Origin: Wickerhamiella versatilis
Taxonomy: Eukaryota
Length of the DNA stretch: 64,000 nucleotides
Reading direction: 5' to 3'
NCBI GenBank assembly: GCA_030867685.1
Contig: JAQOWU010000008.1
Location: forward strand, 2,170,001 to 2,234,000
Shown: in pieces, positions 16,573-29,762 of the stretch
Numbering within the stretch: position 1 is the first letter of the stretch
How the letters are laid out: each line of letters opens with the position of its first letter
Translations under genes and position numbers: made by a program
Notes under the pieces: model-generated
Database searches by the model: none
What the model was told of the DNA's origin: nothing
What the model saw: only the letters and a program-made list of their open reading frames with translations

Positions 16573-16948
16573 GAGTCAACTCTCTCTAAGCGGGCTGAGC
16601 TCTGAGGCGTATGATATCCATGTCGGCACTCGTTATCACCTAATAAGCGACTCTTGATGTTTGCCACAGAGTTAGTCTATGATAGATATCAAATAAGACT
16701 TTCACTTTGACGAATTGTAAAGCCAACTATTCTAAACGGAGCATATCATATGTATTGAGCCTGAGTCATGGAGAGTGTTGAAATCATTCGATAATCCTAG
16801 GTTAATTTTGAACACCTTTGGAGAATTAGCTCTTAGCATAAGCATTCCCCTTCCTACAAAGTATAATTCCACTATTCTTCTATCTACAATGCCACCGTCA
16901 ATAGTTAGTGGGTGTTGCGCTGCCGATTTGACTAATCAAAGACTATCG

Positions 16949-17485
16949 ATGCCGGTTCAGCATTCAAGCTTTAACACATCGCAGGATATGCGTATAATTG
17001 GAAACTTTCCATTACTACCACTAAGAACCAGAGTACGTGGTCCTGCGTTTCCGACTGATGAGTATGACATCCTGGATGAGGTGGTTGATTTATTCCGTGT
17101 CAATAGTTTCTTCCGCAACTTCGAGATTAAGGGACCAGCAGATCGGGCCTTAATATATGGTATCCTGTTTGTAAATGAGTGCTTGACGAATCTCCGAAAA
17201 ACCACACCTCTGACTGAGGCGAATAAACAGTTAAACATAATCGCCAGCGATAACTTCAGCTTGCCAGGTGAGCCAAGCTTTCCTCTCAATTCAATTTATG
17301 CCCCGCCAGGCAACAGAGTTGAGAGCGATACATTATGGAGCTATCTTTCCCAGTTCCGTCAGGAGCTTGCTGCCAGGCTGATTGCATATGTCTATGCCAC
17401 CGACCAGCAAGCGCCCTCAAAATATTGGCTTGCGTTCAGCCGAAAGCGCTTTATGAACCTAAGTTTGCGTGAAGCTACTGTTTAG
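16949..17485 (+). CDS. ARC18: Arp2/3 complex 21-kDa subunit (ARPC3)
   Basis: MPVQHSSF start matches the family N-terminus. FRVNSFFRNFEIKGPADRALIYG and PSKYWLAFSRKRFMN motifs. An in-frame upstream ATG also exists at 16889. Confidence 0.93.
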   Translation: MPVQHSSFNTSQDMRIIGNFPLLPLRTRVRGPAFPTDEYDILDEVVDLFRVNSFFRNFEIKGPADRALIYGILFVNECLTNLRKTTPLTEANKQLNIIASDNFSLPGEPSFPLNSIYAPPGNRVESDTLWSYLSQFRQELAARLIAYVYATDQQAPSKYWLAFSRKRFMNLSLREATV

Positions 17486-17568: not shown

Positions 17569-19695
17569 TTAAGAGTTTCGAACTGTCTTGGACTTTTTCT
17601 TGACTTCGACATTGCCATAATAATAGTGAGGCACAACATCACGGATCCAGCTTGGATCTACATACAAACAGCCGCGCATAAATTCTCGTGATGTCAACAC
17701 TAGTTCATGGTATAATATAAAGTCAGGGTATTCCCCATAGAGAGACGAAGACGGGTGTATTGCAACACCTGAAGTTTGTGATGCTGTGTATGTGCGAGTT
17801 GCTTTGTTTAGTCGAGCTGTATGCTGAAAAAATCCAGCTATATATGCTTTCTGTAAGCCTTTGGAAGTAACGGCTTTCTCAGCGCTTCTCAGTCCTAGAC
17901 GTTTGCACTGGCCTAATAGTTGTGATCTCACATCACGCGCTCTTCTCATAGCTTTGACTTGGACAAAGTGATCTTTGCACCATTGTGGACTCTCTCCCGA
18001 GGCTCGCCATTGGTCCCATATGCCTAAAAGTGTGAGCTGGTCCCCACCATCCACTTTCATTGATGCATGCACTCTATCCGCCTCTTCCCTTCGTGCCTTA
18101 GGGCGATAAAAGAGCTGACCCAGCTCTCCAAGAAGCGCTATAGAGGTGACGACCTCATCGAGACACCCAAACTCTGCTCCCGCTATTACCGTTCGAGCCA
18201 TCTGGGGGTCTAACGGAAATTCTACCATTTTGTGGCCTAGTTTTGTTAACCGGCATTGAGAATCGACGGCCCCTAGGGCATAAAGAAGCTCAAGAGACTT
18301 GATGATTGCCTCAACAGGCGGGGAGTCGATAAAACCAAATTCCAACACATTCTCCACACCTAATGAGAGAAGAAGAAGTACAGTACTTGCTAGATTTGTC
18401 CTTAGGATTTCTGGAGTAGTCTCTGCCTGCAGGTCGTGGCACCAGCTCTGCTTTGTGTATAGCCGAAAGCAATGACCAGGCCCAGTCCGTCCAGCTCTAC
18501 CAGCCCGTTGATTACCAGAAGCTTTTGAAGTTTCCCGCGTCAAAAGGCTCTCAACTCCCGACCTTGCACTCCAAGAAAGCTCCTTGACAAACCCAGGATC
18601 GATCACATACTTTATTCCATCAATCGTCAACGAAGTTTCCGCGATGTTCGTCGCTAGCACAATTTTTCGGCAATTAGCAGGTGTAGTATCAAAGATTTTT
18701 CTTTGGCTGTCAGGAGACAGGTTTGCGTAAACGGGTGCAACCAACATATCTCGTACACTACCACCAAGCATAGCCCTTATTTCTTGTATTCTATCCTCCA
18801 GGGATTCAATTTCTTCTTGTCCCGGCAGAAACACTAGTATATCTCCAGGAATATCCTGGGTAGCATGTATTTGAAAGATGGTGACGAGCGCTGCGTGCAT
18901 CCAGTTCTTCTCTGGATATTTCGTATAATGAATGGTGATTTTGTGCCTGCGGCCGGGTACTGTGTATATAGGGGCCGAGTCTAAATACTTTGAAAACTTT
19001 TCACTGTTCATTGTCGCAGAAGAAATAATTAATCGCAGATCAGGGCGCCGGCTATGGCATAACTCTCTTAGAAGACCCAACAGAATATCTGTATGCAGTG
19101 TTCTCTCATGTGCCTCGTCAACCATTATAGCATTATACTTTGACAGCAGGGGGTCAATCAGCAATTCCCTCAAGAGCATACCATCAGTAAGATATTTAAC
19201 TTCAGTGCGCTCACTACTACGATCTTCAAATCGGATTGTGTAGCCAACTGTATCACCTAGCTTGCAATGCATCTCCTGAGCCACCCGGGAAGCAACTGAC
19301 ATTGCTGCTAACCGTCGTGGTTGTGTACAAGCGACCTTATAGCCCGCTTGATGTAAGAATTGGGGTAGTTTCGTGGTCTTACCAGAGCCGGTCTCACCAC
19401 TGACTATTACAACTTGATTTTCAGCAATTAGACGCAGGAGCTCATCACGATGGTGACTTACTGGCAATTCAATTGCTTCTTCTATTTCAGCCTCATCCTC
19501 ACTATCGGATCCAGATGATGCGATATCAGAGCTGGTATCAAAATCTAACTCCCGAGACTCATCCAAAACAAACTCATAATCATCCTCATCATCCTTCCCG
19601 TGGTCCTCTTCAACTTGGACCTTCGAAAGCTGTGTAGCTTCCCAAGACCGCTTGGCTCCTCTCACTGTGTGTTTAGTAATCGAAGCCGCCACCAT
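17569..19695 (-). CDS. PRP2: DEAH-box spliceosomal helicase, Prp2/DHX16-like
   Basis: GETGSGKTT, TQPRR, DEAH, SAT, ATNIAETSLT and QRAGRAGR motifs plus HA2/OB domains. N-terminal DDYEFVLDE..LDF resembles DHX16/Cdc28. The only ATG before the helicase core is at 19695. Confidence 0.8.
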   Translation of the reverse strand: MVAASITKHTVRGAKRSWEATQLSKVQVEEDHGKDDEDDYEFVLDESRELDFDTSSDIASSGSDSEDEAEIEEAIELPVSHHRDELLRLIAENQVVIVSGETGSGKTTKLPQFLHQAGYKVACTQPRRLAAMSVASRVAQEMHCKLGDTVGYTIRFEDRSSERTEVKYLTDGMLLRELLIDPLLSKYNAIMVDEAHERTLHTDILLGLLRELCHSRRPDLRLIISSATMNSEKFSKYLDSAPIYTVPGRRHKITIHYTKYPEKNWMHAALVTIFQIHATQDIPGDILVFLPGQEEIESLEDRIQEIRAMLGGSVRDMLVAPVYANLSPDSQRKIFDTTPANCRKIVLATNIAETSLTIDGIKYVIDPGFVKELSWSARSGVESLLTRETSKASGNQRAGRAGRTGPGHCFRLYTKQSWCHDLQAETTPEILRTNLASTVLLLLSLGVENVLEFGFIDSPPVEAIIKSLELLYALGAVDSQCRLTKLGHKMVEFPLDPQMARTVIAGAEFGCLDEVVTSIALLGELGQLFYRPKARREEADRVHASMKVDGGDQLTLLGIWDQWRASGESPQWCKDHFVQVKAMRRARDVRSQLLGQCKRLGLRSAEKAVTSKGLQKAYIAGFFQHTARLNKATRTYTASQTSGVAIHPSSSLYGEYPDFILYHELVLTSREFMRGCLYVDPSWIRDVVPHYYYGNVEVKKKSKTVRNS

Positions 19696-21001
19696 GGATG
19701 AAAGTCTGATCAAGGCAGAGAAGGACTACAGCAAGCAGTTGGACAAAGAGCTTCCAGAGATTAGCAAATTGCCAACAGATGATGCTATTGATCGCCTTCT
19801 ACAGTTGGAAAAGAAAATCCGTCAAGCAAGTGACCTGGCAAGTTCAAAGCGGGTCCTAACAGCACTAGTCGATATATGTGCCAAGGGAGTAGCTTGGAAG
19901 CGACTTTGCGAACTCATAGTTGTTCTGTCTAAAAAACATGGCCAGTTGAAGATGGCTACTCAAGCCTTTGTGCAGAAAGTAATAGACGAGTTGCCCGAAG
20001 AAAAGTCACAAAAGGTCGAGGTCATTGATACAATCAGGCAGGTTTCGGAAGGCCGCATTTTTCTTGAACTCGAGCGTGCCCGTGTCACGCGTACTCTAGC
20101 TTATATTAAGCTTGATGAGGGAGACGTAGCCACGGCAGCCGATCTTCTAGGAGAATTACAGGTTGAAACGTTCGGCAGTATGAAACTGACTGAGAAGACC
20201 GAATTTATTCTTGAGCAAATTGAGCTGTACATCAAGAAGGGTGATTATTCTTATGCGCAGATTATATCGCGGAAAATCCTTCCCCGCTACTTCCAAGAGA
20301 AGGGTATGGCTGAGCTTAAGCGACGCTATTACGAGCTCTTGGTTCAAATAGATTTACATGAGGATAATTATTTGGGTGCAGCTTTGTCTCTTCGTCAAAT
20401 ATATGATGATTCTAAGGATGATGTGGACCGCCACTCCCTTCTTAAGAGCATGGTTCTGCTCACTGTACTTTCGCCCGTTGGCCCTGAACAGCAAGACATG
20501 CTACACCGTCTATCCCGAGAGCCAGATCTACCTCTCCTCTCGCTTTTTGATCAAGTGGTCAGAATGTTCATTGCTGACGAGCTTATTCGGTGGCCTCGTA
20601 TTGTCGAAGTTTACGGAAATGATTTGCGCTTATCTTGGGTTTTCTCTCCTGGTGAGGAAGGTGAACGTAGATGGGAGTCTCTGCACTCGCGTAACATTGA
20701 GCACAATATCCGAGTGGTTGCCAAGTTTTATTCCCGTATCACTCTTGATGCTCTGGCGGAGCTGCTGGATCTAGGACTGGTAGAAACTGAGCATACATTG
20801 GCTGGTTTGGTCACGAACGGTACTGTCTGGGCTCGAATCGACCGACCAAACCGTATTGTATCCTTTTCGCCTCCAAAAGAAGCAAACGACATACTCAATG
20901 AGTGGAGTAGCAATACCGATAAGCTGCTGGGTCACATCGAAACAATTGGTCACCTTATAGCCAAAGATGAAATGATGCATGGCATCCGGCAGCGCAATTA
21001 A
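19694..21001 (+). CDS. RPN5: 26S proteasome lid subunit Rpn5
   Basis: KAEKDYS, LEKKIRQASDL, SKKHGQLK, LQVETFGSM and a PCI domain (EHNIRVVAKFYSRI...ARIDRP). The ATG is in a GCCGCCACCATGG context. Confidence 0.96.
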   Translation: MDESLIKAEKDYSKQLDKELPEISKLPTDDAIDRLLQLEKKIRQASDLASSKRVLTALVDICAKGVAWKRLCELIVVLSKKHGQLKMATQAFVQKVIDELPEEKSQKVEVIDTIRQVSEGRIFLELERARVTRTLAYIKLDEGDVATAADLLGELQVETFGSMKLTEKTEFILEQIELYIKKGDYSYAQIISRKILPRYFQEKGMAELKRRYYELLVQIDLHEDNYLGAALSLRQIYDDSKDDVDRHSLLKSMVLLTVLSPVGPEQQDMLHRLSREPDLPLLSLFDQVVRMFIADELIRWPRIVEVYGNDLRLSWVFSPGEEGERRWESLHSRNIEHNIRVVAKFYSRITLDALAELLDLGLVETEHTLAGLVTNGTVWARIDRPNRIVSFSPPKEANDILNEWSSNTDKLLGHIETIGHLIAKDEMMHGIRQRN

Positions 21002-21056: not shown

Positions 21057-21842
21057 CTAAGAATCGCCCTCCCTCCGTTTACGAGCGCTTTCCTTCAGCT
21101 CATCCCATCGGCTTTTCAATTTAGATACTTGAATTCGTAGCTGATCATTTTCAGCTCGCAATCTGTCAACCTCTTGGGTATGCTCATCATTAATTCGTTG
21201 TTCTCGTTGGGCAAGTTCCTGCCGTAGCTGGCTCAAACCGTGCTCTAATACTACTCTTTGAGCCTTCATTGCAGATTCATACGCCTGTGCGCGCTCTGCG
21301 GTGTCAGTAGGGCCTTGTGAAGGACTGCTCACTGTATGCTTTCCGTGGGAGACAAGATAAAAGCTCTCGCTCGGGTCCGACCTGCCCACGAGAATTGCTT
21401 GCTCAAGAGACCTTGTAAACGCTGCGGAAGCCCTGCCTACTAAAGAATTGAGGGCATCTCCACTAGGTGTATTGATCATGTACTGGCTAACCTGGGGGGA
21501 TGCGATTGTGCTGGGAGCAGCCACCGGGGTTTGCTGGCCTTGACTGGAAGTTCTAGCGGCCGCCAGATGAGATTGCTGAGACAAATTGCGGCGGACATCT
21601 TGCTTTGCCTTGTCACTACGAAAGTATTCCGCTCTAGACCGCTGCTGGGAGGCCAGCGCTGCGAGAACCGCTCGCGCCGGAGTTTGAGGAGATGTTTCAA
21701 TCACTTCGTCGAATTTTTCCGCTGCTTCATCAAACAGTAATGCTGCTTTCACATAATTACCTGCCATTGAGGCGGCATCTGCATTCTTAGTGGCCGTATA
21801 CGCGTGGTTCAAAGGTGGGGAGTCATCCGTGAAATCCGACAT
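21057..21842 (-). CDS. ATG38: Atg38/NRBF2-like protein (MIT domain plus C-terminal coiled coil)
   Basis: N-terminal three-helix MIT-like region. C-terminal ENDQLRIQVSKLKSRWDELKESARKRR resembles the Atg38 dimerisation tail. Confidence 0.7.
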   Translation of the reverse strand: MSDFTDDSPPLNHAYTATKNADAASMAGNYVKAALLFDEAAEKFDEVIETSPQTPARAVLAALASQQRSRAEYFRSDKAKQDVRRNLSQQSHLAAARTSSQGQQTPVAAPSTIASPQVSQYMINTPSGDALNSLVGRASAAFTRSLEQAILVGRSDPSESFYLVSHGKHTVSSPSQGPTDTAERAQAYESAMKAQRVVLEHGLSQLRQELAQREQRINDEHTQEVDRLRAENDQLRIQVSKLKSRWDELKESARKRREGDS

Positions 21843-28692: not shown

Positions 28693-29286
28693 TCACCGTT
28701 TTGGGTGGAGCTGTGCAGAAGTCCTATCATCAGCATATTCTTTTTTCGGCGGATGCTTCATATTCACTCGCATTTCTGCGTTCAAGAGCCGTAACTCTTC
28801 ATCCGACATAGCGTCCGGAGACTGAGTGTCTATGTCGGCACTTGGTTCCTGAACAACCCGCTGGCCTTCCATCCCTGGCTGCCAGCTAAAGTTCTCACCC
28901 TCTTTGGCTGACATTGACTTCCACCTTAGCTTCGCCTGCTCTGCCAAAATCTTCAGCCGACGTTGGCGAATATTATCTTGAATGAGCTCTTCTAACGTAG
29001 GGGCATTAGCACGAGTGTGCCTTAGCCACTGTATCCACTGAGGCTTCGCCTCGAAGTCTACATAGAGCTTGTGGCGGTCATTAAACTGTACTTTTCGTCG
29101 GAGCCTGTAGGGATTGTTACGATCCAAGTATTCCCAGTAGCTGTTACCCTCCAAGTCATACCCGACAAACCAGGACTTACGGAACGGGACATTCCGCAGC
29201 GACTTCCACTTATGCCAAAGCTGCAGCGGACGGGAGACTGCAATAGTGATAGGCAGCCCACTGCCCGCAGTTCGAGGTGCTGACAT
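28693..29286 (-). CDS. NDUFA12-family protein, likely complex I assembly factor NDUFAF2/B17.2L
   Basis: WKSLRNVPFRKSWFVGYDLEGNSYWE...PQWIQWLRHTRANAPTLEEL. Confidence 0.82.
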   Translation of the reverse strand: MSAPRTAGSGLPITIAVSRPLQLWHKWKSLRNVPFRKSWFVGYDLEGNSYWEYLDRNNPYRLRRKVQFNDRHKLYVDFEAKPQWIQWLRHTRANAPTLEELIQDNIRQRRLKILAEQAKLRWKSMSAKEGENFSWQPGMEGQRVVQEPSADIDTQSPDAMSDEELRLLNAEMRVNMKHPPKKEYADDRTSAQLHPKR

Positions 29287-29294
29287 CAGATGGG

Positions 29295-29762
29295 ATGGAG
29301 GCCGATGATGTTGCGAGTAGACCTCGAGGAGACGGGTCTTCCAGCGAAGGGGGGCTGAGACCAGTCAAACCAGAGCCAATTCTTCTGGAAGATCGGTCGG
29401 CCGCGTCCTCTGAAGGAACCTGGGTTCATGCCGTGTCTATCCCGACCTGGGAAATCGTCGAAGGCGGAGACACAGGCAACGGTGCTGGGTACGCATCATT
29501 TCTGGTCAGTATCCGTACGGCTCGAGGCCAGTACCTGCGATTTTTAAGAAGGTACACCGACTTTGCCGTGCTCCATGATAGCCTAAAAAAAGATTACGAT
29601 AACGTGCCTGATATCCCACCACGGGCTATTGTTGCGAGATTCAATCCTGCATTCCTGGACGAGCGCAGGAGACAGCTCGAATGGTTCCTCATGGAAGTAC
29701 TTCTCGATCCTATTCTCACTAAGTCTGGATCCGTTAGGGCATTCTGCCACGGACAATCATAA
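29295..29762 (+). CDS. YPT35: PX-domain protein Ypt35
   Basis: N-terminal PxP motif (PEPILLED) and a PX domain (RRYTDF...PDIPPR...FLDERRRQLEWFL...LLDP). Confidence 0.8.
   Translation: MEADDVASRPRGDGSSSEGGLRPVKPEPILLEDRSAASSEGTWVHAVSIPTWEIVEGGDTGNGAGYASFLVSIRTARGQYLRFLRRYTDFAVLHDSLKKDYDNVPDIPPRAIVARFNPAFLDERRRQLEWFLMEVLLDPILTKSGSVRAFCHGQS

Follow-up and report, generated by a model that had tools for sequence, protein, structure and literature searches.

We suggest that in Wickerhamiella versatilis the spliceosomal helicase gene PRP2 is probably translated from a GUG codon and shares with the divergent proteasome gene RPN5 a two-way promoter that leaves no gap between the start sites; we put the probability of this explanation as a whole at roughly 0.6. 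The two genes lie head to head in a 64,000-nucleotide stretch of DNA (contig JAQOWU010000008.1, positions 2,170,001 to 2,234,000; hereafter the window, to which coordinates refer unless another locus is named), and their longest open reading frames (ORFs) overlap at a shared CATG.

Identity of the two genes

The window reads GCCGCCACCATGG at 19685-19697, and here an ATG is found on each strand. The plus-strand ATG at 19694-19696 opens RPN5 (PSMD12; 19694..21001), an ORF of 435 amino acids (aa) in which the PSMD12-CSN4_N, PCI and RPN5_C domains that mark the Rpn5/PSMD12 family are all present (Pfam) and whose N-terminus agrees with its homologues. The minus-strand ATG at 19695-19693, which has a T at -3, begins a 708-aa DEAH helicase ORF ending at 17569. 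This protein has DEAD, Helicase_C, HA2 and OB domains (Pfam), DHX16 is its best PDB match, and a quick tree of 21 proteins puts it in the Prp2/Cdc28 clade (96% support in the Shimodaira-Hasegawa-like approximate likelihood ratio test), whereas four further DEAH proteins of this genome fall elsewhere in that tree. By these sequence features the helicase is Prp2, a member of the Prp2/DHX16 family. Among nine matches in the genome (9.88 Mb, 8 contigs) there is no second Prp2 copy, and spliceosomal introns, judged by eye, are present. By its named relatives, the genome belongs among yeasts of the Trichomonascus, Wickerhamiella and Starmerella type. A sequence-only reading of the locus had described the CATG overlap and had noted that the helicase has no other Met before its catalytic core. 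On the DNA both statements hold, with Met at residues 1, 132, 142 and beyond and the Walker A motif from residue 100.

Mapped 5' ends of the PRP2 and RPN5 messages

Four of 11 listed RNA runs were aligned on 19045-20544, the raw-read runs being sampled at 24-48% each. Base-level 5' ends were taken from adapter-tailed loose read ends in the polyA runs X9 and X11 of one study, with a threshold of three reads and with tails that we take to be of the template-switch type. PRP2 mRNA has ends on the minus strand at 19674 (seven reads in X9 and seven in X11) and 19677 (three in X11), while RPN5 mRNA has ends on the plus strand at 19678 (19 and 14 reads), 19682 (14 and 26) and 19675 (three in X11). 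All five are pyrimidine/purine steps, which are reported as the usual initiator in yeasts (PMC7849388). The main PRP2 mRNA starts 18-21 nt downstream of the minus-strand ATG, as do all listed PRP2 ends, leaving that in-frame ATG (19693..19695), the complement of the RPN5 start context, outside the mapped message. The RPN5 leader measures 12-16 nt from the two main ends to ATG 19694.

The main messages of the two genes abut without overlap, and only the minor ends, RPN5 19675 and PRP2 19677, overlap by 3 nt. In X6, an unstranded run from another study and another strain, PRP2 coverage begins at 19653 and RPN5 coverage at 19693-19704, and a drop in summed depth from 93 to 20 marks the bin 19645-19694; the contig of run X1 likewise stops at 19653. 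Minus-strand depth in the same bin is 10.0 and 13.0, compared with 14.7 and 12.8 expected without a longer PRP2 isoform, and lies below the 17.1 and 15.0 expected if such an isoform made up 25%. PRP2 mRNA has a read depth only ~2-3-fold lower than that of RPN5.

These ends bear on several earlier proposals. The helicase transcript starts below 19693 with no splice joint, and the idea that both ATGs are used is thereby refuted for the main transcript. Complementary mRNA 5' ends had also been proposed; the main ends abut, read depth collapses between the genes, and complementarity shrinks to the 3 nt of the minor ends. Among the listed ends, the two mRNAs do not each contain their own AUG, and the locus is not a 5'-5' overlapping gene pair of the shared-CATG kind. 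The prediction that promoter and leader of each gene lie inside the other gene survives in part: upstream of either start site lie the leader and coding sequence of the other gene, since the start sites are only 0-7 bp apart, whereas the mRNA 5' ends do not span the other's coding sequence.

Two other origins of the PRP2 ends were considered and rejected. A spliced upstream exon finds no joint in four of four runs, and the loose ends at 19674-19677 look like adapter rather than genomic sequence; no splice joint or indel of any kind is listed for 19045-20544 in the four runs, a span that donor-like sites further up (e.g. 20894) fall outside. Adapter strand invasion at CATGG predicts ends at ~19691-19699, where no template-switch tail is listed.

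A probable GUG start of PRP2

In the mapped PRP2 mRNA no in-frame AUG lies ahead of Walker A. The first is Met132 (19300..19302, minus strand), downstream of that motif, and a product starting there would be without the P-loop. Seven out-of-frame AUGs precede Walker A, the first of them opening an ORF of 15 codons (19545..19592, minus strand), and ahead of this AUG at 19592 the only in-frame near-cognate codons are GTG 19665 and three AAG. Because homology to human DHX16 starts at helicase residue 15 and W18-E19 does not vary among the 11 aligned proteins, the codons just after the GTG look translated. Given the missing AUG, the short list of near-cognates and this early homology, we take it that functional Prp2 most likely starts at GUG 19665 (19663..19665, minus strand), which is codon 11 of the long ORF, has an A at -3 and lies 9-12 nt from the mapped 5' ends. 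The PRP2 coding sequence proposed in this way would extend over 17569..19665 on the minus strand and encode 698 aa. In the protein alignment Val is kept at codon 11 in P0001 and in the sister-species protein P0002, and a modest hairpin, computed without a shuffle control, follows the GTG. As an alternative source of an AUG, we considered a GTG-to-ATG change at 19665, through strain variation or editing, and rejected it: no such difference is listed, and the C>T tallies are accounted for elsewhere.

The strains differ at several bases in 19594-19616, a stretch that encodes an acidic part of the Prp2 N-terminus, and positions 19594 and 19600 each show two distinct changes.

Motifs between the two genes

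Two motifs lie in the 28 bp that separate GTG 19665 from ATG 19694. One is a quasi-palindromic Yap-type heptamer, TTAGTAA (19673..19679), which contains four of the five mapped 5' ends and each TA step of which is used on both strands. In background genes, Yap-type heptamers occur at -60..0 in 29/139 and at +3..+60 in 3/139, compared with 18/139 in the longer span from -200 to -60. The other is CGCCAC (19687..19692; GTGGCG on the opposite strand), which resembles the proteasome-associated control element (PACE) and is part of GCCGCCACC, just before the RPN5 ATG. It lies in the RPN5 leader, 10-15 bp ahead of PRP2 5' end 19677, and on the minus strand the bases 19693-19688 read GGTGGC.

GGTGGC, suggested earlier to be the core of PACE, does belong to a motif of proteasome genes here: GTGGC[GA] in either orientation occurs within 60 bp of the ATG in 13/16 proteasome genes versus 7/139 others (Fisher p 1e-11), a motif that was refined after viewing the same proteasome genes. 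The proteasome set left out 3/14 core-subunit loci whose start was uncertain or split by an intron and 4/9 PCI loci judged non-proteasomal. At proteasome genes the PACE-like motif lies 6-44 bp from the ATG, and in four genes it is at most 8 bp away, which gives the start context its Kozak-like look. At RPN5 it lies 5-14 nt downstream, not upstream, of the two main 5' ends. No Rpn4 orthologue was assigned among 47 zinc-finger matches in the genome. The heptamer and the PACE-like motif do not form a special module, as their combination has six genome-wide matches compared with 12 for a reversed control. A bacterial promoter scan of the region, which is not relevant here, found nothing.

In a proteasome alpha-subunit gene (L016:2190-2143, minus strand), the ATG is followed at once by an intron whose branch point sits within a few bases of the 3' site; a GTGGCG overlaps the 5' splice site.

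Relatives and the history of the pair

Of 80 metagenomic RPN5 loci, 41 of which have at least 2.5 kb upstream, one (L064) has PRP2 head to head. There the gap between PRP2 and RPN5 is 254 bp and contains PACE-like sites, PRP2 has an AUG start and a long N-terminus (starts judged by eye), and an LDB17-like gene lies downstream, as in the window. Nine Prp2/Rpn5 protein pairs, including the sister pair P0002/P0122, share a longest-contig value below 200 kb (by eye), which indirectly suggests that the linkage is old. Before Walker A, P0001 and P0002 have 98-99 residues versus a median of 352 among 118 homologues. Because the relative L064 keeps 254 bp and a full Prp2 N-terminus, both the gap and the N-terminus appear to have shrunk in the lineage of W. 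versatilis.

The database version of the window's own helicase, P0241, has codon 2, read as Met, as its first residue, which means that gene calling placed the start at the GTG within the PACE motif; P0002 starts in the same column of the alignment. Between the helicase and P0002, 8/10 residues are identical over codons 2-11 versus 15/29 over codons 12-40, a pattern that would fit conserved promoter DNA. The genome collection contains no relatives of this genome, and the DNA of the sister species did not turn up in two metagenome scans: the first gave no relative among 141 pattern matches, and the second, with its 80 loci, gave a single PRP2-RPN5 neighbour pair (L064).

How unusual is the shared CATG?

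A survey of divergent ORF pairs covered the window and 20 further stretches, 264 kb in all. The gap of -2 between the PRP2 and RPN5 ORFs is the smallest among 33 pairs, which have a median of 362 bp and of which three are less than 50 bp apart. A C at -1, which creates an antisense ATG, is found at 28/139 ATGs. For a close neighbour, the chance of a shared CATG is then ~4% per gene (28/139 x 1/3 for the frame x ~0.6 for ten stop-free codons). Where two genes lie close together, a shared CATG exceeds chance only modestly, and longest-ORF calling can create such overlaps in this genome, which serves as a warning for its annotation.

Other close pairs were seen. At L004:1083-1086 the longest ORFs of MRPL20 (minus strand) and a Prp16-like helicase (plus strand, named by inspection) also overlap at a CATG; a second Met of the helicase, 14 codons further in, may be its real start. 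In the window, an NDUFA12-family gene (minus strand) and a PX-domain gene (plus strand) have their ATGs 8 bp apart (29286-29295), and at L019:2157-2187 a distance of 29 bp separates the ATG of a proteasome alpha-subunit gene from that of a divergent 445-aa ORF.

eIF1 and the search for other AUG-less genes

The eIF1 of this genome (L132:1456-1785, minus strand) has TGKK in loop 1, and a second strain record agrees. NGRK is present in 58 of the 62 homologues that have the loop and TGKK in this genome's only, corresponding to the changes N34T and R36K. The AUG of the eIF1 gene itself has a T at -3. A screen of 219 open frames (398 kb) found six in which the first Met lies at least 45 codons in; a Pfam match precedes the Met in one of the six and is explained by an intron, leaving no unexplained AUG-less gene. 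AUG-less genes are not common here, the screen being blind to cases like PRP2.

Discussion

Based on these data, we suggest the following model. PRP2 and RPN5 would be an old head-to-head pair in which shrinkage of the spacer and of the Prp2 N-terminus produced one ~30-bp element serving both genes. The TTAGTAA heptamer would be where transcription sets off both ways; the 5' ends are observed, and the role of the heptamer itself is putative. The RPN5 leader, with its PACE-like motif, would end directly in the AUG, while the PRP2 mRNA would, for the mapped ends, have no in-frame AUG before the P-loop. In this model, ribosomes make Prp2 from the cap-proximal GUG and those that pass it would meet out-of-frame AUGs; as a result, the weak GUG start would damp the output of the PRP2 mRNA. 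The minus-strand ATG would be a by-product of the RPN5 start context.

Several points weigh against this model. The GUG is very near the cap and has an A rather than a G at +4; the Val of P0002 is known from protein alone, and its codon may not be GTG. The PRP2 5' ends total 17 reads from a single study, and the heptamer-plus-PACE pattern is not enriched genome-wide. Open and conserved as they are, codons 2-11 would fit a true protein N-terminus as well as they fit promoter DNA, and a longer PRP2 isoform of up to ~10-15% is possible and could out-produce a weak GUG.

The last two points lead to the main rival, which we regard as unlikely: a minor, longer PRP2 mRNA that starts inside RPN5 and includes AUG 19695 supplies most Prp2, and the short major mRNA is poorly productive. 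The frame is indeed open from 19695, codons 2-11 are conserved in P0002, and the depth limits are loose. By contrast, no adapter-tailed minus-strand end is listed above 19677, minus-strand depth over 19695-19744 is 2.1 and 7.3 and hence under the 10.0 and 17.6 expected from RPN5 cDNA alone, and the T at -3 is a poor recommendation for ATG 19695. A long message could also be hidden if the PRP2 ends were stops of reverse transcriptase where RPN5 mRNA anneals to a longer PRP2 mRNA, so that the messages in fact overlap. Both PRP2 ends do lie exactly 1 nt before RPN5 ends (19674/19675 and 19677/19678), a register that is explained by the TA step acting as initiator on both strands; usage is inverse, the main PRP2 end lying opposite the rarest RPN5 end and none opposite 19682, which is one of two main RPN5 ends, and the gap is also seen in random-primed run X6 and in the X1 contig. 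We consider such an artefact highly improbable.

Other routes to Prp2 would start from the short mRNA itself. Initiation at one or more other near-cognates (AAG 19653, 19623 or 19596, TTG 19566, ATC 19524, ATA 19485 or ATT 19473) would give a shorter N-terminus. All of them are in frame and upstream of Walker A, a G stands at +4 of most, and the N-terminal domain of yeast Prp2 is reported to be dispensable (PMC10208982), so that initiation at a later near-cognate, still ahead of Walker A, might yield a working enzyme, which also counts against the GUG. Set against this, AAG is absent from the list of yeast near-cognate starts used in one report (PMC6582344), and the remaining codons all lie behind at least four out-of-frame AUGs and would lose the invariant W18-E19; we give this route rather little credence. 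It is barely credible that a frameshift, editing or a splice that escaped notice joins the out-of-frame AUG cluster at 19592 to the frame of the helicase. This route could draw on several AUGs before the core and on a loose resemblance of 19678-19666 (minus strand) to a branch point plus 3' splice site, whereas the runs list neither a joint nor an indel, the helicase frame already encodes conserved residues upstream of 19592, and the two C>T places each in X6, X9 and X11 are all accounted for elsewhere, with none listed at 19665, although bases near read ends may be missed.

For the GUG start, the closest known systems are S. cerevisiae HFA1, reported to be translated solely from a non-AUG codon (PMC6582344), and mammalian EIF4G2/DAP5, reported to be translated solely from GUG (PMC9082881, PMC4705826). 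Like these, PRP2 would lack a usable AUG for the full protein and employ a near-cognate start, and EIF4G2 likewise has a short out-of-frame AUG ORF downstream. Unlike them, PRP2 encodes a core spliceosome helicase in a yeast, its GUG lies 9-12 nt from the cap, and its start is proposed rather than measured. No description of a non-AUG PRP2 or of the PRP2-RPN5 pair was found in the literature searched, which lacks most subscription papers. PRP2 is essential in other yeasts. If the model is correct, a gene essential elsewhere depends wholly on a GUG start, of which few yeast cases are described in the reports cited here (HFA1).

In typical divergent gene pairs of yeasts, the start sites flank a nucleosome-free region of at least 100 bp. 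PRP2 and RPN5 resemble such pairs with bidirectional promoters in being transcribed outwards from one region and in their apparently old linkage. Unlike them, they have start sites 0-7 bp apart, and each pre-initiation complex must therefore sit over the other gene. With 28 bp between the start codons and a regulator motif in the leader, the locus would be close to the smallest possible two-way RNA polymerase II promoter. As for that motif, the Rpn4/PACE consensus of budding yeasts is a GTGGC[GA] core with an AAA tail, and S. cerevisiae PACE sites lie upstream of the transcription start. The enrichment of the core at proteasome genes of this genome is similar to that regulon, whereas the short distance of the sites from the ATG, the RPN5 site downstream of the start site and the absent AAA tail are different.

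Yeast eIF1 with substitutions at N34 or R36 is among the mutants reported to have slow growth, raised UUG initiation or both (10.64898/2026.08.14.744980, citing Martin-Marcos 2013). Like the yeast loop-1 mutants N34E and R36G/A/E, this species is altered at the same two positions; unlike them, N34T and R36K are natural and milder, and any effect is putative. We speculate, with considerable doubt, that the unique loop 1 loosens start selection and that Prp2 is made only from the cap-proximal GUG, scaling down a ~30-bp proteasome-regulated two-way promoter. The mildness of the changes, the NGRK retained by the nearest other eIF1 (P0243) and the lack of an unexplained AUG-less gene among the 219 screened frames all speak against a causal link. 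If the idea were true, splicing capacity would be tied to both proteasome demand and start-codon stringency. The locus would serve as a compact test bed for two initiation complexes on common DNA and for the way eIF1 stringency varies in nature.

Neighbouring genes

Next to the pair, the ARPC3 gene (16889-17485, plus strand) has a Pfam match from residue 21, which is a Met, so translation probably does not begin at the upstream ATG 16889. On the other side, a 261-aa ORF without a Pfam match (21057-21842, minus strand) is convergent on RPN5.

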